Source: Mustelus asterias (lineage: Eukaryota). Taken from it: DNA of 64,000 nt. The position numbers were made by a program, and so were the translations under genes. Positions within the stretch are counted from its first letter, which is position 1, and every line of letters begins with the position of its first letter. The stretch lies in contig NC_135825.1 of the NCBI RefSeq assembly GCF_964213995.1, forward strand, positions 12,710,001-12,774,000, given 5' to 3'. The notes below the pieces were generated by a model that saw only the letters and a list, made by a program, of their open reading frames with translations, did not search any database and was not told where the DNA came from. Shown here piece by piece: positions 2,325-62,961 of the stretch.

Positions 2325-2740
2325 AGCACAGTGATTAGTACTGCTGCCTCACAGCGCCAGGGACCCAGGTTCGATTCCCGGCCTTGAGTCACTCTCTGTG
2401 CAGAGTCTGCACGTTCCCCCCTTGTCTGCGTGGGTTTCTTCCGGTGCTCCGGTTTCATCCCACAGTCCAAAAGACGTGCTGGTTAAGTGTGTTGTGATGT
2501 GGAGATGCCGGCGTTGGACTGGGGTAAGCACAGTAAGAAGTCTCACAACACCAGGTTAAAGTCCAACAGGTTTATTTGGTAGCAAATACCATAAGCTTTC
2601 GGAGCACAGCTCCTTGTGTTGGCCATGCTAAATTCTCCCTCAGTGTATCCAAACAGGCGCTGGAGTGTGGCGACTAGGGGATTTTCACAGTAACTTCACT
2701 GCAGTGTTAATGCAAGCCTACTTGTGACACTAATAAACTT
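2325..2740 (+). mobile_element. HE1-like V-SINE with alternative 3' tail, interrupted by a Penelope-like fragment (2494-2614)
   Basis: tRNA-like head (GGTTCGATTCCC B-box) and V-core. Insert is flanked by TGTGTT direct repeats (2488-2493 / 2615-2620). Confidence 0.8.
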
Positions 2741-3261: not shown

Positions 3262-4012
3262 AAAGCAAAATATTGCAGATGCTGGAAATTTGAAATTTGA
3301 AATTTGAAATTTGAAGTTTGAAATTTGAAATTTGAAATAGAACATGCTGGAAATGTTCAGCAGGTCCAGCAGCATCTGTACCGAGAGAGACAAGTTAATA
3401 GTTCACATCTATGAGTTTTGTCAGAACTGGAAATTTGAGTTTGAGATGTAATAACTATTAGACAAGTACAAAGGGAGCGAAAGGTGGAGGGGGAAAGAGT
3501 AAAGGTGAAGGTTTGTGGGAGGGTGAAAGGCAGGAGAGATTAAATGACAAAAGGAAGGATAGTGCAGGACAGAAAAAGATAGTCGAGGCTAAGTGAAGGA
3601 ACTAAAGATGGATCTCAGAAGATGTAAATGGGAAAGGAAAATGATCACCTTCCAAAAAAAAACAGGGGCAGGGGTTATGATCTGAAATTAGTGAATTCTG
3701 TCCAGAAAATTGCAAAGTGCCTATTTGAAAAATAAGATTCATGTCCCTCGCGCTGACAGTGAGTTTCATTGGAAGAGTTTAGAAGGCAAAGGACAGAGAG
3801 TTAAGGGTGGGATAAAGGCAAAATACTGCAGATGCTGGAATCTGAAACAAAAACAGAAAAGGCTGGAAAATCTCAGCATGTCTGACAGCCTCTGCGGAGA
3901 GACAATAGAGCCAATGTTTTGAGTCTGGATAAACCTTTGTCAGAGCTCTCTGTCAGCTCTAACGAAGGGTAATCCAGACTCGAAACGTTGGCTCTGTTCT
4001 ATCTCCACAGAT
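3262..4012. mobile_element. Penelope-like element terminal fragments, including an inverted pair at ~3893-4012 and a (TTTGAAA)n expansion at ~3288-3337
   Basis: Recurrent ...gcaaaatactgcagatgctggaatctgaaa... terminus and hammerhead-like motif, the same family as 61000-61680. Confidence 0.65.
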
Positions 4013-5474: not shown

Positions 5475-5705
5475 GGCACAGTAAAAAGCCTCACAACACC
5501 GGCTTAAAGTCCAACAGGTTTATTTGATAGCACGAGCTTTTGGAGCGCTGCCCCTTCATCAGGTGAGAGGTAGCCAGCCCACTCACCTGGTGAAGGGCAG
5601 CGCTCCGAAAGCTCGTGATTCCAAATAAACCTGTTGGACTTTAACCTGGTGTCGCGCGACCTCTTACTGTGCCCATCCCCAGTCCCAACGCCGGCATCTC
5701 CACAC
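5475..5705. mobile_element. Palindromic Penelope-like terminal element with two inverted hammerhead-bearing arms
   Basis: Arms 5475-5567 and 5582-5673 are reverse complements. Each has a CTGNTGA-AGG(G)GCAGCGCTCC-(G)AAAGCTCGTG motif. Confidence 0.75.
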
Positions 5706-10736: not shown

Positions 10737-11272
10737 GAAACATCAGCACAAACAAAGGAGCCTGTCTAATTAGGAAGCAGTGCTGTCCTTTCAGGACAAG
10801 TTCAATGGCTCTACACTTGGATTTCAATAACGCTTCTGTTCCCATCGCTTTCAATTTACATGCTACCCGAGGACAGTCCGAAGCCCCCACTTTAACCAAA
10901 GTTGCCATCTCTGCCAACAACTTCAGTTCCATAGCCTGCGTGGCATTTGAAGAAATTTAGCCATTATTGCTGGGGCTATTAACAGATAAATGCACAATAC
11001 CTTTGCATTACGACCCATTATCCATGACTGGTAACTCATCAAATAAATAGATTATTGTCTGTTCTGAAGTTTTCAGACAGGGAAATGTCACACAGACAAT
11101 TTGCATGTTCATCCACTGATATCACCAACAATAATTCTGATGTAAACTGTCTCCGACTGCCTCTGTAAATTCTTTTTATAAAACGATTGTATTACAAGAT
11201 TTTTTTTTTGTCCATCTGATCTGATCATTGATTATTTCGATTGATCAAACATCAATAACTTCCAGCTTTGAC

Positions 11273-11575
11273 AAAGTGTGGAGATGCCGGCGTTGGACTG
11301 GGATGGGCACAATAAGTAGTCTCACAACACCAGGTTAAAGTCCAACAGGTTTATTTGGTGACACGAGCTTTCGGAACGCCGCTCCTTCATCGGGTGAGTG
11401 CAGGATTTGTTTCACCTGGTGTTGTGAGGCTACTTACTGAGTTTTGACAAAGGGTCGTCTGGACTCGAAACGTCAGCTCCTTTCTCTCCTTACAGATGCT
11501 GCCAGACCTGCTGAGATTTTCCAGCATTTTCTCTTTTGGTTTCAGATTCCAGCATCTGCAGTAACTTGCTTTTAT
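11273..11575. mobile_element. Composite of two Penelope-like terminal fragments in opposite orientation
   Basis: Family 1 (minus strand, 11273-11400) abuts family 2 (plus strand, 11439-11575). Both carry hammerhead motifs. Confidence 0.7.
11439..11479 (+). ncRNA. Minimal type I hammerhead ribozyme motif, U3-A8 variant
   Basis: GAGTT|TTGACAA-A-GGGTC gtctg GACTC-GAAA-C-GTC|AGCTC: stem I, core, stem II and a loopless palindromic stem III. Confidence 0.6.
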
Positions 11576-13084
11576 CAAATTATTGACGCATACAACAGCA
11601 ACAGGAGACGAAAGTTCAATTTGTCAACAAATTAAGTATTTTTTGTGAATAAACTGTCACCTGAACATTGAAGCTCCAGTACTTGGTAACAAATGTCAAG
11701 TTAATATTTGAATAATCAGAGGTATTCAGGATGGTATTTTAAGTATTCAATTTTATACAGTTAATTACTGTGGAATGTTACAGGACTTAAAGTTGGTACA
11801 GAACCGATTGACACAGGCAATTTTAAGATGTTAACTTTTATTGCCCCTGTTAACTTATATTTGTATTTGCGTGTAAGTGTTTTCTTGGCTTTGGAGTGAT
11901 TGAGTTAATTTTTAAAAACCCAGCAGCAAGCCTCCTGTATTTAAAAAGGTTAGTCTATTTTATTCACCTCCTTGCCCTGGAGGTTACTAGTGATAACTAC
12001 AGTCCATAACTTCCCCAGCATCGGATTTGGGAGCTATCCCAAACATGCTTCGGGGAATCCCTCTGGGAAGTTCCCAGGTAAGCATTTACTCGGCAATTGC
12101 CCAGAAACGTTAACTTTCCCTGGACAATTGCACTGTCCTGGGAACCATCCGACAGAAGCAATTGAAATCTCTAACTTTGGGTGGTTTTACCAGTTTTACC
12201 CTCATAGTTACTCTAAAAGAGTTAGAAGAAATGAAAGCGCCTCCAACTTCAACTTAACTATTTTACAGACCCAGACCGAACCCTGCTTGAGATACCCCCA
12301 AATCCCTGACTCTTGAGGGGTCCTCCCAACTCCCCCACCCAACTAAGCACCCCCCTCCTCGTCGTATTCCCTACATCCCCACCCACATGGATTCTCCAAC
12401 TCCGCCAAACAACACCCCCAACCCAACCTCGCTGATGTCCAACTCCATCCCCTCAATGTCCATGTCACCGCCCCCCCCCGGCCAATGTCTGAACCCCGCA
12501 TCCCCCCGATTCCTGACTTACTGCACCCCCCAATATCCGATTCCCCCCCCGCCGATATCCTAACCCCACACTCCCCTGATGTCTGACTCCAACTCCCCCC
12601 CCCCATGTCCAACTCCCCCTGACAATGCCAAACTCCCACCCTGCTAATGCCCAAACCCCGCACTCCCCTGATGTCCGACACCCCCGCGCCCCCCCCAATG
12701 TCCAAACACTTGCACCCACCTGATATCCAACTCCCCCTCCCCCGCCAATGTCCAAACCATCCACCTCCCCATGTTCGACTCCCCGCCCCACCGATTTCGG
12801 AACCCCCACATGCCATTCCCCTACATTAGACACCTGGCGTCTCCCTGTTACTTTTAATGAAACATTTAAACTCAGCTCCTTTACGTCGCAGACGCCAGGG
12901 ACTCATTTCGCTGCCTGAGTCTCACCTGACCTGAGTCAGAAAGTTCCAGCGAGATGGATGCTGAATAATTTAAGCGCAGGTAAATTGACTGAGAGCGGCA
13001 GTCTGTGCTGATTGCCGCTCCGAGGAAATTATGACCCGTTTACATCACACTCACTCTCTCACTTGCACTCTTTCACACACACAC

Positions 13085-16400: not shown

Positions 16401-17965
16401 TATACCGTGTCCCGCACCTTCAGGGTCACCACGCAGCAGCCAAGGACATTTACAGAGCGGGATTGTGACGCCATGGAGATCGTCTGCTGGATGGGCCGCA
16501 TGGAAAAGGCGTATCGGCGCACCGTATCAGGGTGAATGAAGCTCTCCGTACTCCCACTGTCAAACAAACAATGCTCACTGTGCCCGTTTACCTCAATGTC
16601 CATCATGGACGCGGCGAGACGATGAGGCTTTGTCTGATCCAGGGTCACTGATGCCACTGTTGAATCCTGCAGAAAGCTGTAGGGAGTTGCAGCTGTAGGA
16701 AATGGCGGCCCCTGCTGGTCACTCGTGGTAATTGTCGGCCAAGAGGACGGCCCCTGCGGTTTGCCGACGGCCGATGACGTCATCCAAGATGGCGGCCCCC
16801 GCGGGTCGCACACGGCCGGGGGCGTCCAAGATGGCGGCCCCCGCAGGTCGCACGCGGCCGGGGTCGTCCAAGATGGCTGCCCCCGTGGGTCACACGCGGG
16901 GGCGCTCGTGGATTTGGGAGCAGACTTACGGCAGGCCTTTGCGTAGTGCCCCTTCTTCCCACACGCGGAGCAGAACGACTCCCTCGCCGGGCAGCGTTGT
17001 CGGGGGTGCTTACCCAGGCCGCAGAAGTAACAGTTCGGGCCTCCAGAGGTTGCAGCTGCAGTCAGGTCACCGGAGAGGCGTGGGGCGGTGTAGGGCTGTG
17101 GTCCTCCCGGTAGCGACGGCCGCAGTGTCCAGGATGCGCCCACGTGGTCAGGTGAGTAGGATTCGAGGTATTGGGAGGTCACTTCTCGGGACACAGCCAG
17201 TTGCACAGTTTTCTTTAAGTCCAGCGCACCCTGTTCCAGCAGCCGTTGCCGGATGTAAGTAGTTCCGATGCCCGTGACAAAGGCATCCCGGACTAAGTCG
17301 TCTGTATATTGGGTGGCCATCACAGACCTACAGTTACAGTCCCGGGCAAGCCGACGCAACGCGCGCAGGAACTGGTCGACTGATTCACCTGGCTGCCGTC
17401 TGCGCGTAGCGAGGAGGTGCCTCGCATAGACTTCGTCAGGCCGTTTATTATACAGGCCTTTTAACAGTTCGATAGCGGCCGTATAATTTTCCGCGGATCG
17501 TAGCGTATACTACGTCGCTTACCCGGCCGCGGAGCACCCGTAGTTTGTCAGCATCTGTACTGATGGCAGTGGAGGCTTCGATGTAATCCTCGAAACATTG
17601 CAGCCAGTGGTCAAACGTGTTAGAGGCTCCGGCAGCTTCCGGGTCCAGATTCAGCCTTTCGGGTTTCAGTAGCTGCTCCATTCTTCAAAAAAAAAACTTG
17701 CCAATAAAATTGATGCGCTGTCAATCGAGCCGAGACTAGTTGTGAGCAAGACAAACAGCTTTTTATTGGCAAGAACTTGGAGCCATCCTTGTCGGAGATC
17801 TGGTCTGAACTGAGAGCAAGGGGGAGGAGCCACCGCCTTTATACCCAGACTAGGGGGAGGAGACTTGGGCGGAACCGACAGGGATGTGCCACATATACAG
17901 GTACTGAGAAATACTAACTACAGTGGTTAACCACTACAGATAACATATAACAGTGGTTTACCACA
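13473..17965 (-). mobile_element. Full-length Gypsy/Ty3 (Mag-like) LTR retrotransposon, decayed
   Basis: 255-bp LTRs at 13473-13727 and 17711-17965 (TG...CA on the minus strand, about 15 differences by eye). PPT at ~13728-13740, CACAC flanks, gag-PR-RT-RH-IN domain order. Confidence 0.95.
13784..17681 (-). pseudogene. Gypsy gag-pol with two CCHC knuckles, protease (LFDSGS), RT (YLDNV), RNase H (VESDAS) and integrase (HHCC, IHSDRG...VERENA); several frameshifts and a stop at 15753-15755
   Basis: ORF pieces 17448-17681, 16259-17359, 15753-15944, 13944-15752 and 13784-13993 are collinear on the minus strand. Confidence 0.93.
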
Positions 17966-18162
17966 CACACTCACACACACACGCACTCTCTCACACACAC
18001 TCACACCCTCACACAGACACACACCCTCACACACACACTCACACACACGCACTCACACACACACACACTCACACACACACGCACTCTCTCACACACACTC
18101 ACACCCTCACACAGACACACACACTCACGCACTCACACACACACACACTCACACACACACAC
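17966..18162. repeat. (CA)n/(CACT)-rich microsatellite
   Basis: Seen directly; continues the 13422-13472 tract split by the LTR element. Confidence 0.95.
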
Positions 18163-19327
18163 TTTCTCACCAAAATTAGGTACAGGGGAAGTTGAAAACA
18201 ATACTTACAAAAATGGAATGGATCTCAGTCCCTGTTTTGATACAGGGCTTGTTATCCTGCAGCCGCATTGTTACATTTCTTAAATGAAGGTTGTTAAATT
18301 GCAGAGACGTCTCAGCAGTTGCGATGGTTTCTGTGGTCAGCCAGTAGGAAGTTGGTTTTCTCGGGTAAGCTCGAAGCGGAACAAGGTCAGATCGAGGGGG
18401 AGTGGAAATTCTTTATTTCCCTTTCAAGTAACTGTGGTGTGGTTATTTTTTGAGTGTGGGTGATTACAGCGGTTCAGTGGCTTCCTGAATGATGAAATCC
18501 TGCAATTCACTTCTGTACACCGAGAGCAATTTGCCTTGTTTTTGAACAGGAAGTAAAGACAACCACAGTACCATGTGGCCCTGTAACAAATACCAAATCA
18601 TCTTTCAGATCAGGCATTAAGATCATTTTAATTACAGTCTGAATCATCCTCCAACCTACTGTGGTGGCTTTTCACACCTCAAGGTTTCTTATCAGTGTTA
18701 CCAGACTGTGCCCCTTTATTTTTGGAATTGTGGTTTTTACAACTTTCACTTGACTAGAAATGTTGCAGTTTGCACTGAGACCAGAGCAAACTGCTTAAAA
18801 TACAACACCGCCTTCAAGGGTGAAGGTTAGAAACCAACATATCACCCTCAGGGGAGTGTGAAGAGAGAGACATTTCCTGTGGCCTGACACCCATTGAAAC
18901 TCTCAACTGGCCGAGGGAGAGACATTAAAAGTGCAAATTGCTGAGTATTGAGAGGTGGCTTCCACAGACAGAGCCACCCGAAACCTCTTGGAAATGCACA
19001 ATGGGTGAAATATTTCAAGGCAAGGCTGACAGCCACTCAAGAGTGATTGCAAGTGACGCAGGCGGTGTCAAGAGTGGGCTTCAGCAGAGGGAACAAACTG
19101 AGAGCCCTCTCTTCCTCTTTCTCTCTTTTGGAATAAGCTCAGTTTTAAGAAGCCAGCTCTTACACAATGCGACCAACAAAATGAAATCCCATAATAATTG
19201 CATCTTTTACATCGCATCCAAGGAGGCAGCAAACCCAAATCAACGACAATATTCAAAATCTATGCTGCAAGGACAATGAAAGGTACTTGAATTTATACTA
19301 TTTTACTTTTTTTAATTGGACACTAAC

Positions 19328-20704: not shown

Positions 20705-22130
20705 GATGCCAGGAACTTGCTTCGCTGCCTGAGTCTCACCTGACCTGAGTCAGAAAGGTCCAGCGAGATGGACGCTGAATAATTTAAGCACAGGTAAATT
20801 GATTGAGAGTGGCAGTCTGCGCTGATTGCCGCTCCGAGGAAGTTATGACCCGTATACATCACTCTCACTCTCCCACTCACACACACTCACAGATACACAC
20901 ACTCTCTCTCACGCACACACACTCACACAGACATACACACTCACACAGACACACACACTCACTCTCTCTAATCATACGCACTCACTCTCACGCACACGCA
21001 CTCACTCTCTCTCATGCACACACACTCTCTCACATACACACACTCACTCTCTTTCACACATACACTCACTGTCTCTCACACACACACGCTCTCGTGCACA
21101 CACGCTCACTCTCTCTCACGCACACACACACTCTCTCTCACGCACATGCACTCACTCTCTCTCANNNNNNNNNNNNNNNNNNNNNNNNNNNNNNNNNNNN
21201 NNNNNNNNNNNNNNNNNNNNNNNNNNNNNNNNNNNNNNNNNNNNNNNNNNNNNNNNNNNNNNNNNNNNNNNNNNNNNNNNNNNNNNNNNNNNNNNNNNNN
21301 NNNNNNNNNNNNNNNNNNNNNNNNNNNNNNNNNNNNNNNNNNNNNNNNNNNNNNNNNNNNNNNNNNNNNNNNNNNNNNNNNNNNNNNNNNNNNNNNNNNN
21401 NNNNNATTAGGTACAGGGGAAGTTGAAAACAATACTTACAAAAATGGAATAGATCTCAGTCCCTGTTTTGATACAGGGCTTGTTATCCTGCAGCCGCATT
21501 GTTACATTTCTAAAGTGAAGGTTGTTAAATTGCAGAGACGTCTCAGCAGTTGCGATGGTTTCTGTGGTCAGCCAGTAGGAAGTTGGTTTTCTCGGGTAAG
21601 CTCGAAGTGGAACAAGGTCAGATCGCGGGGGAGTGGAAATTCTTTATTTCCCTTTCAAGTAACTGTGATGTGGTTATTTTTTGAGTGTGGGTGATTACAG
21701 CGGTTCAGTGGCTTCCTGAATGATGAAATCCTGCGATTCACTTCTGTACACCGAGAGCAATTTGCCTTGCTTTTGAACAGGAAGTAAAGACAACCACAGT
21801 ACCATGTGGCCCTGTAACAAATAACAAATCATCTTTCAGATCAGGCATTAAGATCATTTTAATTACAGTCTGAATCATCCTCCAACCTACTGTGGTGGCT
21901 TTTCACACCTCAAGGTTTCTTATCAGTGTTACCAGACTGTGCCCCTTTATTTTTGGAATTGTGGTTTTTACAACTTTCACTTGACTAGAAATGTTGCAGT
22001 TTGCACTGAGACAGAGCAAACTGCTTAAAATACAACACCGCCTTCAAGGGCGAAGGTTAGAAACCAACATATCACCCTCAGGGGAGTGTAAAGAGAGAGA
22101 CATTTCCTGTGGCCTGACACCCATTTGCAA
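20705..22130. repeat. Copy 2 of the local duplication, without visible insertions
   Basis: Homologous to 12890-13080, the CA tract and 18175-18900. Confidence 0.9.
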
Positions 22131-25555: not shown

Positions 25556-25844
25556 GATTAGAGCTTCCAGTTTGTGGGCGTCATTCCGTTGTCTGCTCTG
25601 GCTGTTTGCACTGTTTCACTCACATGTAATGTGCATTTTGCAATAGGGCCAGTCTAGAGTCCAGAGCTTTGACGAAGGGTCATCCAGACTGGAGACGTTG
25701 GCTCTATTCTCTCTCCACAGATGCTGCCAGACCCACTGAGACTTTCCAGCATTTTCTGTTTTTGTTTCAGATTCCAGCATCCACAATATTTTGCTTTTAT
25801 TATAATATTTTAAATCTGATCTCTCTGATATTTGTAGACATATT

Positions 25845-29219: not shown

Positions 29220-30115
29220 TGAATGTTTGACCAAACATGTTGATGTGGCTCGGTGTCTGACTTGTTTACAATTAATTACTGCGGATGCTGGAACTCACTG
29301 CCACTTCTCTCCCAGGTCCAGCGTCCGCAGTAATTTGCTTTTATCCAGTGTTTAACTCACTGACACTTCTCTTCCAGGAATGCCTACCGTGAAGAGGTAC
29401 TGCTCTTCTCTCTGACAGGATTTATAAATATCTCCCACTTTCTACGCCTTTTAGCTTCGACAAAGGGTCGCCTGGACTCGAAACGTCAGCTCTTTTCTCT
29501 CCTTACAGATGCCGCCAAACCTGCTGAGATTTTCCAGCATTTTCTCTTTTAGTTACAATTAACACACATGAGAAGCACCAGGGGTTGCGTTGCTACACTA
29601 CAGGGGGTATATCGGTGCAAGGTGTCATTGTCACTGATTCATAATTGATCTGCGGGAATCAGGTAACATTTCAAGCGCAGAGATTGTCAAACTGCTCACA
29701 AACATCTCAAGCGTTCCCATTAATTCATCTTGGGGCCTCCCAAGTGGCAGAGTCTGTGCCAATCATACCAGGGGCCATAGGAATGAGTAGGAACTCCCAG
29801 CACACCAAAGAGAGAATCGGTCTAATGGCAAACCACTAACTAGGATCAACGATCCTGATAAAGGGCCGGTCATTTTAAACTGAGGTGCGTAGAAACTTCT
29901 TCTCGCAGAGTGTGGTGGATCTCTGGAATTCTCTGCCCCAAAGGGTGGTGGAGGCTGGATCATTAGAAGTATTTAAAGTGGAGGTGGATAAATATTTGAT
30001 AGATTGAGGAATTGAAGGCAACAGGGAAACGGCACAGAGAAGGAGTTGAGGCCGGCATAGATCAGCCATGATCATATTGAATGTTGGGGCAGGCTTGAAG
30101 GGCCTGGTCACCCAC

Positions 30116-36969: not shown

Positions 36970-37429
36970 TGTATTTTCCACCTGACACCTGTCATAGACA
37001 CACTTTGTCTTCCTTATCTCAATATTACCAAAATTTCGATCTCATCTTCTAAATAATCTTCACAGATCACGAGGAGTTTCTTCTGGGAGATGAGGTGGTG
37101 ATGGACAGTGATTCAGGGACAATTTTGATTGGACGGTTATTTTCTTGCTAATGAAAAAAACCTCCTTAGTTTCCATGTTTCCGTTGTCATGGTGATTGAT
37201 GAAAATAGAAGTTTTGGTCATTGTGTGAGTAAGCCTGTAGAAGTGTTAATGTGTAAGGAGAGAATAAAATTGGATTGCACGGGAACACCGGGATGGCCCA
37301 GTCCTGCTGAACGTCCACGGACTTTCTCCTGGCCCTCCACATCCCCCCGGGGGCAGGACCCAGCACGGCGGGACTGGAAAACAACCCAAGTGGAGTTGAG
37401 GAGCATGGATGCAGATTCTGCAGTTGGCC

Positions 37430-37591
37430 TCTAACCACATCTACATTGTTCAAGAGGAACTGGCCGATGTGACAGAAATATAAAGAAGGAAATGACATAC
37501 ACAACTGAGGAAACTACTCGGTTGAAAGATAGCACGGCTGAAGTACAATATCTGGACAGAGAGAATTCACCCGCCAGAAACACTCAGAACA
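37430..37591 (+). promoter_or_regulatory. Putative gene C promoter with RUNX (AACCACA 37433), PU.1/ETS (AAGAGGAA 37452; GGAA 37488, 37509), TATA-like (TATAAA 37479) and GATA motifs
   Basis: Motif cluster ~110-160 bp upstream of the ATG, retained in the duplicate at ~59260-59420. Confidence 0.5.
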
Positions 37592-37631
37592 ATGGAATTA
37601 ATTGCTCTCTTGATTCTAATATCTGTATCAA
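37592..37631 (+). CDS. Gene C exon 1, signal peptide (MELIALLILISVS)
   Basis: Kozak acaATGG, hydrophobic leader, A|gtaagt donor in phase 1 matching the IgV exon. Confidence 0.85.
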
Positions 37632-38649
37632 GTAAGTCTATTAAATTTTTTTAATTGATTTTTAATATTCATAGAAAGTATTTTTGGCAATCTGAGATGA
37701 TGAAGACCAGAAACAGCGACTGACCCAGGCACCAGTTGGTGTGAGCTAAAGATGAAGCACTTACAGTTTTGCAGACTGTGGCTGTTGTTGTGAAAGCCGT
37801 CTGCTGCTCCGGTATCTTCAGAAGATGGTGGCGTAGGGGTAACGTTTTGGGCTAGTAATCAGGCTAATGCTCTGGGGACTTGGGTTCAAATCCCACTGTC
37901 ACGGCTGGTGGAATGTAAAATTCAGTTAATTTATTGGGTGGCACAGTGCTTAGCACTGCTGCCTCAGCGCGCCGGGACCCAGGTTGATTTCCGGCCTCGG
38001 GTCGATGTCCGTGTGGAGTTTGCACATTCTCCCCATGTCTGCATGGGTTTCCTCCGGGTGCTCCAGTTTCCTCCCACATTCCAGAGATGTGTGGGTTACG
38101 CTTATTGGCCATGCTAAATTGACACTAGCATCAGGGGGATTAGCTTGGTAAATATGTGGGTTTACGGGAATAGGTCCTGGGTAGGATTATGGTCGGTGCA
38201 GACTCGATGGGCTGAATGGCCTCCTTCTGCACTGTGGGGATTCTATGACATTCTATGACAATCAGTCTTTGCTTCTCTCTGTGATTTGCCTCTGCATTCT
38301 GACTCTATCTGCCTCGTTGCAGCTCTGTCCTGATAAATTGCCCCTTAGTGTCAGCGTGTCTACCTCGGGTAAATGCATGGGGTTATGAGAATAGGGCCTG
38401 CGTGAGATTGCGGTTGGTGCAAACTCAATGGGGCAAAGGCCTCATTCTGCACTGTAGGATTCTATAATTATGATCATACCAGCTCCAAGCCAACAATTCT
38501 CCTCCTGTCGCTGTTCATGTAACCCTACAATCTCTCTGACAACTTTTCCCATTTACCTTGTTGTGAACCAATAACAGAGGTCGCGCCCTTAGCCAATTGT
38601 GTCATGAAGTGTTACAATGCTCTTTGTGTGTTGATAAATTGAGCTGTAA

Positions 38650-38836
38650 AGACTCGCATTCCAATCATTATTCATTCGTCTGTAAATTGAGTTTGTGTCT
38701 TTATATGCCCTGTTTGTTGTTTATGAGCAGATCTCCCACTCACCTGACGAAGGAGCAGCGCTCCGAAGGCTAGTGGCGTTTGCGACCAAATAAACCTGTT
38801 GAACTTTAACCTGGTGTTGTTAGACTCCTTACTGTG
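38650..38836 (+). mobile_element. Penelope-like terminus with hammerhead motif (38741-38775)
   Basis: CAC-CTGACGA-A-GGAGC agc GCTCC-GAAG-GCTA-GTG; absent from the duplicate. Confidence 0.65.
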
Positions 38837-39309
38837 ACAAATTGAGGAGCAGAGGATCTGACTAAACCCTCCTGTCTCCACAGAGCAAGAATCATTGCTA
38901 TCTTGCGAGAAAAGAGAAGAAAAACAGGGTGTCAAATCTATCTCAGATGTTCCTGTAAAGTGGGCATCCACAATCTGGCTCTGCCCATTTCCGATCCCTG
39001 TTGGAGGATGGCTTGGGAGGTTTGGTAGCTCAGTTATTGATTAAGTTAAATATTCTGAGAATGTGTCCCCAGGTTCTAGATCCCCAGCTGAAGGAATCAT
39101 CATTCCTGCATGTACTCTATCAAATCCTGTATGAAGTTCTGTTCACATGAGATCACCTCTAATTTTTCTAAACTCCACAGAAAAAAAGCTCAGTCTATTT
39201 AATCTTTCCACACTCCATCACACAAATTAGTTTGATGAACTTTCGTCGCATTTTCTCAATGATAAGTATATCTTTTCTTCTGTAAGGAGACTATAACTGC
39301 ACAATATAC

Positions 39310-39975
39310 TGGATAAAAGCAAATTATTGCGGATGCTGGAATCTGAAACCAAAAGAGGAAATGCAGAACAATCTCAGCAGTTCTGGCAGCATCTGTCAGG
39401 AGAGAAAAGAGCTGACGTTTCGAGTCCAGACGACCCTTTGTCAAAGCTAAAAGGCAGAGAAAGTGGGAGATATTTATAGTGCAGGGGGAGGGAATGAAAG
39501 ATGAGTCAGAGCCACAGAAACCAGGGGAAAGGCTGCTGATGGCTGTCCACAGAGAGAATAGAGGGTGTGAATGGCCAAACGGCAGAGAAGCTAAAATGAA
39601 GATGTTGGGGATGGGAGTGTGGTGGGGGGTGGGGGGGGGGGGGGGGGGGGGGTGGGGTCATCTTCCGGCTAGGCACTTTACATCCTTATGGCCCCAACAT
39701 CAAATTCAACAACTTTAGATGATTAGTTCTACTCCACCTCAACCCCACTGTTTTCATTCTATTTTATTTAATTTTTTACTGTTCTCTACCTATTATTTCT
39801 TTATTGTCTTTCTTCATTTTTCTTTCCACCCCCCACTCTCTCTGCCCCTACTTTGTCCCCCTTCCCTTACCTTTTCTCCCTCTTTGCTTCTCCTTTTCTA
39901 AATCTGACCTCTGTCCCATCCATTCCCCCCATCCCACCCCTCCCCCCACTCCCCAACATCTTTATTTTAGCTTCG
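39310..39975. mobile_element. Penelope-like element with inverted terminal segment
   Basis: 39310-39610 is the reverse complement of the sequence at 61425-61680; 39657-39975 is in the direct orientation. Confidence 0.7.
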
Positions 39976-41229
39976 CATTGAGACATCATTGCTGCAAAAC
40001 TCAAATCCTCTTGTCACCAAAGCCAAACTACCATTTGCCTCCTTAATTGTTTTCTCCATCGCCATGTTAACTTTCAGTGACCCACGAATAATTTCTCCTC
40101 ATCTCTGCCTTAAATGTCACGCCTCAGTTTCAAACAGTGACTCCCTCCTTCTAGATTCTCTGACAAGAGGAAACTTCCAATTCACGTTCTCCCTGTCATA
40201 GAGTCATAGAGGTTTACAGCACGGAAACAGGCCCTTCGGCCCAACTTGTCCATGCCACCCATTTTTTAAACCACTGAGCTAGTCCCAATTCCCATGTTTA
40301 GCCCACCTTACCCATGTAACTGCCTAAATGCTTTTTAAAAGACAAAATTGGACCCGCCTCTACTACTACCTCTGGCAGCTAGTTCCAGACATTCACCACC
40401 CTCTGTGTGAAACATTTGCCCCTCTGGACCCTTTTGTATCTCTCCCCTCTCACCTTAAACCTATGCCCTCTGGTTTTGGACTCCCGTACCTTTGGGAAAA
40501 GATGTTGACTGTCTAGCTGATTAATGCCCCTCATTATTTTATAGTCCTCTATAAGATCACCCTTAAGCCTCACTATTGTAAGACTGGAAGGAACATAACT
40601 GATCTCTAAACTTAAACCATAATTTTTAGTTAATTGCTAAACGCAAACAAATCAAATCACAGCCTTACTCTGAAGTCACTTTTCAGTTCCCCCCAGTTGA
40701 AACACTCAGAATCAGAATCCCTTACCGTCTCAGGTTATTCTCCGGCTCGCTCCCACTCTGTCCACTCCTGTAGTCAGGCCCACCACTTACCTGCCGGCTG
40801 TGACGACACGGTTCGATTTCTTTTTACCTTTCTCTTGCCCTCGAGTCTCCCTCGCAGGTCCATATCTTGGCTCCACCCAAAGACAAGTGCCTCTTTCCCC
40901 TCTGTGCCGAATTCCCACTCAGCTCCAAATTCCCGATACCCTCACTCTGGCTGAAATCTCACTCAGGCTGCAGTCTCTCTCCCACTGGCGTGCGCAGGCT
41001 CAGTGGTATCCGTAACGAGCAACATAAAATTCTGGCCTGTGTCTGTGCAGTGCTTTGAAGGCTCGTTGGTGAAATGAAGCAGCACAAGGAATTTGATCTT
41101 AACAATGTAATTTGATCCATCATTGCAAAGGAGATTGTTACAGCAATGAAATGGGACTGTTTACTCGGTTATTATTTAGTTGATTCAGATCGAGCTGTTA
41201 ATAACCTTTCCTCATTAACATCCCCATAG

Positions 41230-52245: not shown

Positions 52246-53053
52246 ATTCACTAACCCCAGGAAGGGTGTCAGTTTCATGAGGTTCCTTGGAGTTGCCGCC
52301 TACTTGATGGCCCACACGTTGTTTTCCACCGGATGAAGGCCCTGCCATCCACCCAATGGTCTAGATAGTTATTCCTGTATTCTTCTTGGTTCCCAGCTGT
52401 ATTTTCCTCCTGACACCTGTCAAAAGCACATTTTGGGTCCGATTTTACCATTGCGTTGCACCCGTTTTTGGGTGCAAAAGCTTGGTAAAGTTGGGCGTGA
52501 GGCGAATAATGTGATTCCCACCTGCATCCGCGCCGATTCCCCCTTTACCAAGGCCCGAAAATGGCCGCGATCGGCATCGCACCTGAAACGGGCGCAACAG
52601 CGATTTAAATGTATTTGCATGCATTTAAATTGAATTAATGAGCTGCCCGCCCAACGTTACCAGCACTTCCCCCCTTTACCACCGCGTTGGCCAATCCCAA
52701 ATCGGCGTGAAACAGACATGCTCAATATAAGTCCGATTCGGGCACTTCATCAGTGAGGCTTGGCGAGGAGGTAAGTGCATGGCATCCGAGACTCTCTGTT
52801 GCTCATGGGTGTCCTGTTGTTGTGGCCATTTTCTGTCTTATGTCGGTGGCGGCTCTATGAATGTGTGGGAGGGTGGGGGGTTGTTTCTCTGCAGGGTCTC
52901 CGATGTTTCTCTTGCAGCAGGGACCCAGGTCTCAGCACTGACCGTGGGTCTTGCGGTGCTGCTGGGTCCTAGTGCACTCAGCTCATTGCCAGCTGAAGGA
53001 TGTACACAGAGCCCTTGCAAATTGCACTGCTGCAGCCTCTCAACTTTATCAGG

Positions 53054-53603
53054 AGCTGTGATTGTGGGGAGCGTGTGGCTAGGGGGAATTCGGAGGGCTG
53101 TGATTGTGGGGAGCGTGTGGCTGGGGGAATTCGGAGGGCTGTGATTGTGGGGAGCGTGTGGCTAGGGGAATTGGGGGGGCTGTGATTGTGGGGAGCGTGT
53201 GGCTGGGGGAATTGGGGGAGCTGTGATTGTGGGGAGCGTGTGGCTGGGGGAATTGGGGGGCTGTGATTGTGGGGAGCGTGTGGCTGGGGGAATTGGGGGG
53301 CTGTGATTGTGGGGAGCGTGTGGCTGGGGTAATTGGGGGGGCTGTGATTGTGGGGAGCGTGTGGCTGGGGTAATTGGGGGGCTGTGATTGTGGGGAGTGT
53401 GTGGCTGGGGTAATTGGGGGGGCTATGATTGTGGGGAGTGTGTGGCTGGGGTAATTGGGGGGGCTATGATTGTGGGGAGCATGTGGCTGGGGGATTTTGG
53501 GGGGCTGTGATTGTGGGGAGCGTGCAGCTGGGGGAATTCGGGGGGCTGTGATAGTGGGGAGCGTGTGGCTGGGGGAATTGGGGGATGGGGGGTGTGATTG
53601 TGG
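53054..53603. repeat. G-rich minisatellite, ~40-bp unit GGGCTGTGATTGTGGGGAGCGTGTGGCTGGGGGAATT, ~14 copies
   Basis: Seen directly. Confidence 0.95.
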
Positions 53604-53863
53604 ATGTGCTAGGAGCAAGCAGCATTGCATAACCTTCACATCTGTTCCTCTCCACCTCCCCATNNNNNNNNNNNNNNNNNNNNNNNNNNNNNNNNNNNNN
53701 NNNNNNNNNNNNNNNNNNNNNNNNNNNNNNNNNNNNNNNNNNNNNNNNNNNNNNNNNNNNNNNNNNNNNNNNNNNNNNNNNNNNNNNNNNNNNNNNNNNN
53801 NNNNNNNNNNNNNNNNNNNNNNNNNNNNNNNNNNNNNNNNNNNNNNNNNNNNNNNNNNNNNNN

Positions 53864-58070: not shown

Positions 58071-59422
58071 CCCTGCACTGCCTGCCTGCCTGTCCATCCT
58101 TGAGTTTTTTATGGAGCTGCCCCTCATTAGGGCAGATCAGCTGCAGGCAGTTCGGCAGAGCATTCCGGCAAGTTCCACGCAGTTTGCTTGTTAGCATTGA
58201 GGGGAAGGCAAGTGAGCACTTGCAGGTGTGCTGCTGGGGAGGGGGGGGTGGGTGATGGATCAGTGCCTCAATGCGTGGGGACAGGGGAGAGAGAGGGAGG
58301 TGCCACACAGCCATCGGAGTCCGGAGGAGATGGGGGCCTAGTGTGGCAGGGTCCAGGGTGGGGGAGAGGGTGCTCACTCTGCCTGAGATATGTAGGGTGG
58401 AGGGGGGAGGATGGATCTCTCAGCCTGAGTTCAGTGAGGGAGAAGAGGGTGTCCGCTGTCAGTCTGCCTGAGATCAGTGGAGGGGAAGGGGGGAGGGGGC
58501 TGCGATCGGTCTGGGTGGCGGGGGGGGGTGGCGGTGGGGGGATAAGTGGGTCTATAATGTTATGGGGGTGGGGCCATGTCTGTGGGGGCCGGGGGGAGGC
58601 CCGGGCGCAATGTGGCACTTTTCAATTTATTTTACTGCGCATGCGCAGCTGAAGGATCCAATCGGAGCAGCAGCGTTTCGGGCGGGATAAGCCCCGCCCA
58701 CAGCGCGATTCGGACTCGCGACTTTTTTTTTTCAGGCTAAGTGCGTACGGGGGCGCCTGAGAACAGGGTTTACAAGTCGGATCTGAATTACGCTCAGATT
58801 CAGCACTTAGAATCAAAAGGGTAAAATTGCCCCCTTTGTCTTCCTTCTCTCAATATCATCAAAATTTCGATCTCAGCTTCTAAACAATCTTCACAGACCA
58901 CAAGGGGTTTCTTCTGGGAGATGAGGTGGCGATGGACAGTGATTCGGGGACAATTTTGATTAGACAGTTATTTTGTTGCTAAGGAAAAAATACCTCCTTA
59001 GTTTCCATGTTTCCGTTGTCATGGTGATTGATGAAAATAGAAGTTTTGGTCAATGTGTGAATAAGCCTGTAGAAGTGTTAATGTGTAAGGAGAGAATAAA
59101 ATTGGATTGCACGGGAACACCGGGTTGGTCCAGTCCTGCTGAACGTCCACGGACTTTCTCCTGGCCCTCCACATCCCCGGGGGGCAGGGCCCAGCACGGC
59201 GGGACTGGAAAACAACCCAAGTGGAGTTGAGGAGCGTGGATGCAGATTCTGCAGTTGGCCTCTAACCACATCTACATTGTTCAAGAGGAACTGGCCGATG
59301 TGACAGAAATATAAAGAAGGAAATGACATACACAACTGAGGAAACTACCCGGTTGAAAGATAGCACGGCTGAAGTACAATATCTGGACAGAGAGAATTCA
59401 CCCGCCAGAAACACTCAGAACA

Positions 59423-59462
59423 ATGGAGTTAATCGCTCTCTTGATTCTAATGTCTGTATCAA
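59423..59462 (+). CDS. Gene E exon 1, signal peptide (MELIALLILMSVS); rest presumably beyond the window
   Basis: Intact ATG and A|gtaagt donor; paralog of 37592-37631. Confidence 0.8.
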
Positions 59463-60999
59463 GTAAGTCTATTAAATGTTTTTCATTGATTTTTAATATT
59501 CATAGAAAGTATTTTTGGCAATCTGAGATGATGAAGACCAGAAACAGCGACTGACCCAGGCACCAGTTGGTGTGAGCTAAAGATGAAGCACTTACGGTTT
59601 TGCAGATTGTGGCTGTTGTTGTGAAAGCTGTCTGCTGCTCCGGTATCTTCAGAAGATGGTGGCGTAGGGGTAACGTTTTGGGCTAGTAATCAGGCTAATG
59701 CTCTGGGGGCTTGGGTTCAAATCCCACTGTCACGGCTGGTGGAATGTAAAATTCAGTTAATTTATTGGGTGGCACGGTGGTTAGCACTGCTGCCTCAGCG
59801 CGGCGGGACCCAAGTTGATTCCTGGCCTCGGGTCGATATCTGTGTGGAGTTTGCACATTCTCCCCATGTCTGCATGGTTTTCCTCCGGGTGCTCCAGTTT
59901 CCTCCAACATTCCAGAGATGTGTGGGTTACGCTGATTGGCCATGCTCAATTGACCCCTTAAGGTCAGGGGGACGAGCAGGGTAAATATGTGGGTTTGCAG
60001 GAATAGTTCCTGGGTGGGATCATGGTCAGTGCAGACTCGATGGGCAGAATAGCCACCTTCTGCACTGTGGGGCTTCTGTGACATTCTATGACAATCAGTC
60101 TTTGCCTCTTTCTGTGCTTTGCCTCTGCATTCTGTCTCTATCTGCCTCGTCACAGCTCTGTCCTCCCCGAAACACCAGCTCCTCATCAACGACAAGGAAC
60201 TAACTGGGTTTTTCTTTCCATTTGTCTCACACAAGCCCTGTTGTGTCGCACCTCGACCTGAGGGAAAACTCTCAAGGAGATTCACATGGTGCAGATTGCA
60301 GAAGAATCGAGAACCTGGAACACATTTGTGCCTTAAAAGGCAAACTGTCAAATATTATTCTTTAGAACAAAAATACATTTGGAGAACAAAACTCACAATC
60401 AGTTATTTCATTTCCGCAAAAATGAATTGTGTCTGAATAGACTGAGCACTTTCATTGTTTCTTTGTGTACTTTTTTTACCCAGTTTCTGAAGCTCAAAAT
60501 GATCTTTTTTGTTAAGCAATTGTAGTATGTCTTTACTCGTAATTATTTGAACACATTTCTCAACAGGGCGGCACTGTGGCGCAGCGGTTAACTCTGCTGC
60601 CTCACAGCGCCAGAGACACGGGTTCGATTCCCGGCTTGGGTCACTGCCTGTGTGGAGTTTGCACATTCTCCCCATGTCTGCGTGGGTTTTCTCCGGGGGC
60701 TCCAGCTTCCTCCCACTCTCCAAAGATGTGCAGGTTAAATGGATTGGCCATGCTAAATTGCCCCTTAGTGTCAGGGGGTCTAGCTAGGGGAAATGCATGG
60801 GGTTATGGGGATAGGGCTTGGGTGGGATTGTGGTTGGTGCAGACTCGATGGGCCGAGTGGCCTCCTTCTGCACTGTAGGACTCGGTGATTATGATAATAC
60901 CAGCTCAAAGCCAACAATTCTTCTCCTCGAGCTGTTCACGTCACCCTGCAACCTCTCTGACAACTTTTCCCATTGACTTTGTTATGAACCTCTCGATGC

Positions 61000-61680
61000 T
61001 GCTCCCATGCCCACATGTCTGTCCTTGGCCTGCTGCGATGTTCCAGTGAAGCTCAACGCAAACTGGAGGAACAGCATCTCATCTTCCAGCTCCCCACATT
61101 ACAGCCTTCCGGTCTCAACATCAAATTCAACAACTTCAGATGATTAGCTCTACCCCACCTCGATTCCTTTCTTTTCATTCTATTTTATTTAATTTTTTAC
61201 TGTTCTCCACCTTTTATTTCTTTATTGTCTTTCTTCATTTTTCTTCCCCCCCCCCCATTCTATCTCCCCCTACTTTATCCCTCTTCCCTTCCCTTTTCTC
61301 CCCCTTTGCTTCTCCTTTTCTAAATCTTACCTCTGTCCCATCCATTTTCCTCCCCCCTCACCCCACCCCCACAGCCACCGCCCCCCCCCCCCCCCCCCCG
61401 CCCCACCACCACCCCGCCCCGCCCTCACATCTTCATTTTGGCTTCTCTGCCGTTTGGCCATTCACATCCTTTATTCTCTCTGTGGACAGCCATTAGCAGC
61501 CTTTCCCCTGGTTTCTGTGGCTATGACTCATCTTTCATTCCCTCACCCTGCACTATAAATATCTCCCACTTTCTCTGCCTTTTAGCTTTGACAAAGGGTC
61601 GTCTGGACTCGAAACGTCAGCTCTTTTCTCTCCTGACAGATGCTGCCACACCGGCTGAGGTTTTCTAGCATTTCCTCTTT
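61000..61680 (+). mobile_element. Penelope-like element 3' end (GIY-YIG C-terminus RKLEEQHLIFQLPTLQPSGLNIKFNNFR*) with hammerhead at 61584-61622
   Basis: Peptide read from ~61010-61143; AGCT|TTGACAA-A-GGGTC..GACTC-GAAAC-GTC|AGCT. Confidence 0.8.
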
Positions 61681-62961
61681 TGCACCAAATCCCCCAGATT
61701 CAGCCTCACCAAAGCTTCGCGTTGAGACATCATTGCTGCAAAACTCAAATCCTCTTGTCACTAAAGCCAAAATACCATTTGTCTTCTTAATTGTTTTCTC
61801 CATCGCCATGTTCACTTTCAGTGACCCACAAATAATTTCTCCTCATCTCTGCCTTAAATGTCACGCCTCAGTTTGAAACAGTGACTCCCTCCTTCTAGAT
61901 TCTCTGACAAGAGGAAACTTCCAACTCACATTCACCCTGTCATCAAGTCGTAAAGCTTTACAGCACGGAAACAGGCCCTTCGGCCCAACTTGGCCTTTTT
62001 TTTAACAACTAAGCTAATCCCAATTGCCCAAGTTTGGCCCATATCCTATCTAAATGTTTTTTAAAAGACAAAATTGTACCCGCCTCTATTACTACCTCTG
62101 GCAGCTTGTTCCAGACACTCACCACCGTCTGTGTGAAACATTTGCACCTCTGGGCCCTTTTGTATCTCTCCCCTTTCACCTTAAACCTATGCCTTCTAAT
62201 TTTGGACTCCCCGACCTTTGGGAAAAGATGTTGACTATCTAGCTGACCTATGCCCTCATTATTTTATAGACCTCTATAAGATCACCCCTAAGCCTCACTA
62301 TTGTAAGACTGGCAGGAACCTAACTTACTTCTTCACTTAAACCATTCGTTAATTGCGAAACGCAAACAAAAACTAAACCACAGAGAGAGATTAACCCTTT
62401 AGTGACCTCTGTGAGCACCAGGATCGTATTTTACAAGGAGTGGTTATTGGGACAGAGAATACCTAATGAGATTGAAATTATCCTGAGAGCCATTGGTGCA
62501 GAACAGAGGCTGGACATTGGTTTCCCTCGCTGAGCAAGCCCACATCGTCTAGAGGTGTGCAGGCCCACAGTTTTATACCGACCAGGCCACTCCCTCCGCC
62601 TGTAATTGTCCATGGGCTCAGAAATGGGCAGACTGAGAAAGAATGAAGGGATTCATTTTTTCTTCTCAAGTTTCTTTTCATATTTCCCATTGCGACAAAG
62701 TCTGTAAATAAGGAATCTTCTGATTTGGTGGAATCTGGTCCCACAAGAAGCTCACAGCAGATAATCAGAGGGCTGCCTGTTGGGGAAATTGGGGACAAAA
62801 ACTGTGGCCTCAATTTTTCGCCAATCGGACTCGCTGGGGCTGGAGGTGGGCGTAAGACATGTTCTCAGCTGCAGTCAACGCCATTTCACATTGGTTGGCC
62901 AATTAAGAGTCAGCCAGTGTGAAACACGCACGTGAAAATGCCACAGCCCTGACGGGGAGGG

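Follow-up and report, generated by a model that had tools for sequence, protein, structure and literature searches.

The stretch of shark DNA analysed here, a window of 64,000 nucleotides from Mustelus asterias, contains short motifs that resemble hammerhead ribozymes in which U3-A8 replaces the C3-G8 pair of the core. Are these real hammerheads? If so, how did two core positions come to differ together, and where in the RNA of the carrier element does the motif lie?

Hammerheads of the window and their carrier element

The copy at 61584..61622 on the forward strand is a minimal type I hammerhead of what we call subfamily A, with a U3-A8 pair and a predicted cut between 61618 and 61619. A candidate TATA box, TATAAA at 61554..61559 (+), lies 30 nt ahead of the first base of stem I. 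Both are part of a 5'-truncated subfamily A insertion (60995..61682, +) made up of the end of an endonuclease frame, a 3' UTR and a pseudo-LTR; the terminal part of the GIY-YIG reading frame occupies 60995-61143 (+), upstream of the hammerhead. A second U3-A8 hammerhead, at 39410..39448 (-), comes with element pieces at 39313-39590 (-) and 39658-39911 (+). It is a paralogue of the first, with which it shares AGCU, UUGACAA, an extra A, GGGUC/GACUC, GAAAC-GUC and AGCU; the stem II so formed has 5 bp, including one G-U, around a 5-nt loop. The two copies lie in a segmental duplication (37003-40651 / 58834-62370, 85-95% identity, offset ~21.8 kb), and one of its paralogues has the Penelope segment in reverse orientation. 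Because they share this duplication the copies likely go back to a single insertion and are not independent.

Two further subfamily A copies are shorter or altered. The copy at 11440..11576 (+) has its hammerhead at 11440-11478, with AGUU as the 5' strand of stem I, and its first ~13 nt are repeated at 11264-11276, the motif being split by an insert from another hammerhead-bearing family. This nested insert, a piece of family E of ~165 bp, entered the 5' end of the subfamily A hammerhead (window 11264-11478). The copy at 29317..29557 (+) has its hammerhead, with U4C, at 29453-29491 and a TATAAA at 29423, and 29317-29423 corresponds to the start of the element body. Three copies belong to a sister subfamily, B. 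One, at 25665..25801 (+), has decayed to U3-G8 and A13G; the others, at 3792..3947 (-), decayed to C3-A8 at a CpG with G12A, and at 3955..4012 (+), with C3-G8 and G5A, are the two arms of one head-to-head insertion. The earlier note had read UUGACAA at 61584-61622 (+) and 39410-39448 (-), and UCGACAA at 29453-29491, and the letters are exactly so; its third UUGACAA copy is present also, but spans 11440-11478 rather than 11439-11479.

A strict descriptor had 3 matches in the window and none in any of 100 shuffles; the UUGACAA motifs are real and beyond chance. An Rfam search of the window returned no hammerhead match. All of the window copies are solitary, inert fragments of the element, and the genome holds thousands of decaying hammerhead copies. 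The window contains other repeats as well. Damaged copies of family E lie at 38740-38776 (+), ~11361-11397 (-), 5530-5566 (-) and 2590-2620 (-); in this family the core is C3-G8, stem III is the palindrome AGCU and stem I occurs in several variants, and there are 105 anchored copies over the loci examined. There are also a 41-bp tandem array (53000-53666), duplicated short-period arrays (17900-18200 / 20800-21170) and several abundant SINE-like repeats.

What is the carrier? The earlier note had linked the motif to Penelope-like elements (PLEs), and several observations bear this out. At loci chosen by the end of the endonuclease, the subfamily A motif follows 560-1,050 nt downstream in 25 of 30. 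A full-length copy, L116, has an inverted 5' piece and U3-A8 hammerheads at 3436 and 6686, so that the motifs are spaced by 3,250 nt and each of the two pseudo-LTRs of one PLE contains a hammerhead. Between them is a broken ORF in which motifs of RT, the CxxC linker and GIY-YIG can be read, followed by the 3' UTR. In Pfam, RVT_1 passes the cut-off and GIY-YIG falls short of it (E=0.0015; the translated copies are broken). The 67 protein homologues include Chiloscyllium proteins with the top identities of 59-60%, which makes a shark host probable. A single ORF with RT and, at its C-terminus, GIY-YIG (the latter below the Pfam cut-off), together with pseudo-LTRs, an inverted 5' copy and a 30-40-bp tail, is the organization of an endonuclease-bearing (EN+) PLE. 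The linker that separates RT from EN, CNCRRCNTC / CNRRTCNTC, fits the CX2-5CxxC that defines the Neptune and Nematis clades in the accessible text of PMC8557442, and by this linker motif the element would be of the Neptune/Nematis type. A non-LTR retrozyme, which consists of non-coding tandem monomers with no ORF of its own, is ruled out, as the copies are dispersed fragments of a coding element. We note that in both L116 (3430-3650) and the window (29317-29423) the interval from the hammerhead to the likely start of the ORF (MPTLKK) contains several polypyrimidine-AG motifs in a row, which are possible 3' splice sites, as well as a short upstream ORF.

Ends of the copies and a candidate transcription start

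Where do the copies begin? Of 9,267 matches to an anchor lying downstream, we examined the first 98, all from one region of C1, with both arms of inverted insertions counted. In this sample 32 of the 5' ends are at +1, the A of stem I, and 59 fall within -5..+6; the remainder lie further upstream (22), at +7 to +31 (12), at +32 (1), at the predicted cut, +36 (2), and beyond (2). In contigs of other organisms, too, loose ends accumulate at the same place. A TATA box typically lies ~30 nt ahead of a polymerase II start. Among 62 long subfamily A copies, 46 have TATAAA exactly 30 nt before +1, the other 16 being without an intact TATAAA, and the same holds for 5 of 5 B copies. In 7 of 7 hand-picked B copies the spacing is kept although only 9-14 of the 24 spacer letters match A. 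The 3' ends form two clusters, at +95-105 and +135-140, 35-40 nt apart. From the accumulation of 5' ends at +1, the TATAAA spacing and the 3' clusters we infer that the RNA starts at stem I and that the template is mostly uncut. On these grounds the ribozyme is likely to sit at the 5' end of the transcript, and uncut RNA is likely to be the main insertion template.

Might the pile at +1 instead mark a site of processing or priming, either self-priming by AGCU or a 3' splice site in which a polypyrimidine stretch is followed by an AG that overlaps stem I? We think this unlikely, but it is the alternative that survives best. Many of the +1 ends are fold-backs centred on AGCT and, since the AGCU there is a palindrome, junctions at +1 could come from fold-back or microhomology. 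Self-priming at palindromic junctions is proposed in the accessible part of PMC3846280, and the Penelope intron of D. virilis ends at helix I, as described in the portion of PMC4209133 available. Nor is there an excess of cap-derived G before +1 (7 of 20, against ~31% expected). The D. virilis Penelope promoter, moreover, is described as TATA-less and internal (PMC2377424), which would count against a TATA-driven start; a putative TATA box is mentioned for an Adineta pseudo-LTR in the available text of PMC3846280. Against processing or priming, simple insertions in unrelated DNA begin at the same place: 21 of 38 such ends in subfamily A, in copies chosen on an intact core, are at +1 or +2. No shared upstream exon was seen, the ends fall at the A of the AG rather than past it, the identical AGCT at +36 attracts few ends, and the TATAAA spacing is conserved.

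Do any copies begin at the cut? Such starts are rare and ambiguous. A cut-site search in subfamily A gave 62 genome matches of an estimated 9,600 copies, with a pattern that catches ~42% of random junctions. Thirty of these matches were inspected by eye; 18 are inverted-arm junctions, 12 are small indels in longer copies, and none is joined to unrelated DNA. Twelve of the 18 inverted-arm junctions share AGCT with an arm ending at +1. In the 98-copy sample, the two ends at the cut compare with 5 over 29 neighbouring places (p=0.013, a value confounded by AGCT microhomology). Family E has 5 of 105 ends near the cut, judged on incomplete references, and the corresponding test in subfamily B covered 8 copies only.

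Fold of the hammerhead and origin of the U3-A8 pair

We aligned eight real copies, hand-picked from families A-E. In the alignment 97.9% of cells are paired and 10 of 12 pairs have changed on both sides; its score was reached by 0 of 500 shuffles, and slid controls gave at most 0.16 as compared with 0.79. The paired changes across families involve stems I, II and III, and the core is invariant save for positions 3, 7, 8 and 17. With its invariant core and so many pairs changed on both sides, the alignment speaks for the fold having been under selection in the source lineages. The core reads YUGANRA ... GAAA ... UH with a Watson-Crick 3-8 pair, helices I and II covary across families, G10.1-C11.1 is present, and an extra base follows A9. 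Stem III has no loop and is palindromic at 15.1-16.1, as ACGU in A-D and AGCU in E. The earlier note's view that a second copy is needed to complete a loopless, palindromic stem III is upheld. Position 17 is U in subfamilies B, C and D, giving a GUU cut triplet, and C in A, giving GUC (L186-L215, L246-L275). By its sequence, then, the motif is a real compensatory Penelope hammerhead whose self-cleavage is putative.

The 3-8 pair shows one change, in one of the eight rows, and how this double change came about is a question for the genome as a whole. A single pattern gave 6,057 matches, with 0 for the reversed pattern, of which 5,709 are U3A8, 181 C3A8, 84 C3G8 and 83 U3G8, so that U3-A8 is the 94% state of subfamily A. 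In 82 ungapped copies chosen by the downstream anchor only, 69 are U3A8 and 50 have all 11 core bases intact. Every family sampled other than A is C3-G8. By eye, the first 100 of 2,466 rows of subfamily B comprise 76 C3G8, 20 C3A8, 4 U3G8 and 0 U3A8; the first 100 of 3,896 rows of older families comprise 73, 16, 10 and 1, respectively; and C3G8 is found in 19 of 23 copies of family E. This distribution makes it likely that C3-G8 is ancestral and that U3-A8 arose once, as one derived event. In contigs of four other organisms U3 is in the majority (79-99%), with no A8G row at 5%; in four further organisms there was no row at 3 or 8 among the rows listed. In 404 kb of DNA taken without selection, the descriptor picked out too few intact motifs for a family survey.

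Could A8 have arisen after insertion, by decay of a CpG? Decay of C7 is 2%, as opposed to 19-36% at other, true CpGs (run X23). A8 therefore predates insertion, and CpG decay of the inserted copies is rejected as its source. Together with the 5,709 of 6,057 copies that are U3A8, this supports the claim that the paired change was fixed in the source element. Whether 3 and 8 vary independently, which the earlier note had offered as grounds for refutation, has a divided answer. Between subfamilies the two change as a pair; inside A both change singly, at background rates. A8G (U3G8) amounts to 1.5% and U3C (C3A8) to 3.2%, while A6G and A9G together account for 280 copies, 2.5% per site, and on the sequence data the single changes in A are neutral decay. 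Since the 3-8 covariation is one event between subfamilies, a genome-wide covariation count would mainly measure subfamily structure. A U3-G8 source lineage finds no support: T7 is commoner in U3G8 than in U3A8 rows (13/83 versus 4/97), yet U3G8 falls below the background rate.

A dead or near-dead ribozyme, whose source lineage would have lost C3 by chance and G8 through the decay of a CpG, and would have spread with no need of cleavage, is a doubtful reading, a little more so than a processing or priming site at +1. The 3-8 covariation being one event, and G8 belonging to a CpG, a slack ribozyme may have undergone both changes by chance. The leader is kept in nearly all copies, with only 2 of 98 starting at the cut and 0 of 30 inspected cut-site matches joined to unrelated DNA. 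Energy does not favour the active dimer: the double hammerhead is at -16.9 kcal/mol, the best dimer at -23.6 and each monomer at -10.8 (2D energy only), and the monomer's best fold pairs the core GAC with GUC, so the active dimer is predicted to differ from the lowest-energy fold. In the available text on the anole element, cleavage occurs only with the element's protein and hammerhead mutants have no effect on in vitro insertion (PMC11167929, Frangieh et al. 2024). What speaks against a dead ribozyme is that the core of A has changed at two positions only, the 3-8 partners, with pairing restored, and that the remaining core bases are invariant across families while the stems covary. The U3 majority in contigs of four other organisms counts against it too, and natural U3-A8 hammerheads are cited as active in vitro in the portion seen of PMC3088659 (Perreault et al. 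2011).

The earlier note had seen intermediates in UUGACGA at ~25669 and CUGACAA at ~3935 (-). The letters are present, at 25669 and at 3943-3937 (-), but the two copies resemble subfamily B at 86-90% and A at only 77-81% and, as single changes at 3 and 8 are ordinary decay in B, we regard them as decayed B copies. That the population is still evolving by way of U3-G8 and C3-A8 intermediates is most improbable: the 11-fold excess of C3G8 over independence (84 observed, 7.3 expected) is due to sister subfamily B, to which 10 of 10 C3G8 loci inspected belong, U3G8 at 1.5% is below the A-to-G background at A6 and A9, and the C3A8 class contains junction chimeras and B decay.

Possible mechanism and relation to known systems

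How might such an element propagate? The scheme that we consider probable is that of a U3-A8 Penelope pseudo-LTR hammerhead that likely lies at the RNA 5' end, that is predicted to cut slowly and as two copies, and that likely leaves uncut RNA as the main template. The source element of the abundant subfamily A carried U3-A8 instead of C3-G8. Transcription would begin 30 nt past TATAAA, with the A of stem I as the first base. Reverse transcription may begin internally, ~100 or 135 nt downstream, as the available account of the anole element describes (PMC11167929), and proceed to the RNA 5' end, yielding stubs of 100-140 nt as well as head-to-head fold-backs. The two motifs of a transcript could pair through ACGU into a double hammerhead, probably with help from protein. 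Cleavage by this structure is predicted to be slow; if it took place after GUC it would strip a 35-nt leader, and genomic copies would come mainly from uncut RNA.

A bolder proposal, which we put forward as speculation and think more likely wrong than right by some way, is that the capped first base of a TATA-driven RNA is also the first base of the hammerhead, which would serve as a slow switch for decapping. Uncut RNA would be translated and inserted, cut RNA would lose its 35-nt leader, and U3-A8 would have tuned the switch down, favouring uncut templates, so that A came to outnumber its C3-G8 sister. A start at stem I, if true, links the ribozyme to capping and translation control rather than to production of the insertion template. 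The sister subfamilies, U3-A8 and C3-G8 with thousands of copies each, form a natural pair with a sharp map of RNA ends. They make testable the role of Penelope hammerheads, which are poor cutters and dispensable for insertion in vitro.

What is new here? The U3-A8 variant is already known: the sections available of PMC4209133 (Cervera and de la Pena, 2014) describe it in Penelope hammerheads of S. mansoni, with ~1,300 matches, and those of PMC3088659 among natural hammerheads, so its novelty is not supported. The extra base, the palindromic stem III, the need for a dimer and the low activity of such dimers are likewise in the accessible text of PMC4209133. In an incomplete coverage of the literature we found no printed shark case; shark terms are absent from the searched supplement of PMC4209133, and the retrozyme survey 10.64898/2026.07.22.740005 (bioRxiv), as far as its accessible text goes, sampled one chondrichthyan. 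The fresh observation is that most copies start at or near the first base of the motif, likely marking the RNA start.

With EN+ elements of the Neptune and Nematis clades the shark element shares the C-terminal GIY-YIG, the CX2-5CxxC linker, the inverted 5' copy and the 30-40-bp tail, as given in the available portions of PMC8557442 and PMC3846280, and on present data it is assignable to either clade. The minimal hammerheads of metazoan PLEs, including Cercyon of S. mansoni, are close relatives by the accessible account in PMC4209133. They too are type I, with no loop III, palindromic 15.2-16.2, an extra base between 9 and 10.1, G10.1-C11.1 and a 4-bp helix I; they occupy both pseudo-LTRs, ~3 kb apart, are mostly solitary and have a covariant U3-A8. 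The differences lie in the shark host, U3-A8 as the 94% state of a large subfamily, a helix II of 5 bp, and 5' ends at stem I. The natural U3-A8 hammerheads, in what is available of PMC3088659, have the same compensatory pair, whereas the shark motif has neither a self-contained helix III nor a loop I. Poseidon of Anolis carolinensis, according to the portion seen of PMC11167929, also has a pseudo-LTR hammerhead, uncut RNA as the dominant template and two 3' end points resembling the 'tail' of internal RT initiation. It differs from the shark element in belonging to another clade and in its C3-G8 core, and its ORF starts inside the ribozyme, whereas that of the shark element starts ~170 nt downstream of +1.
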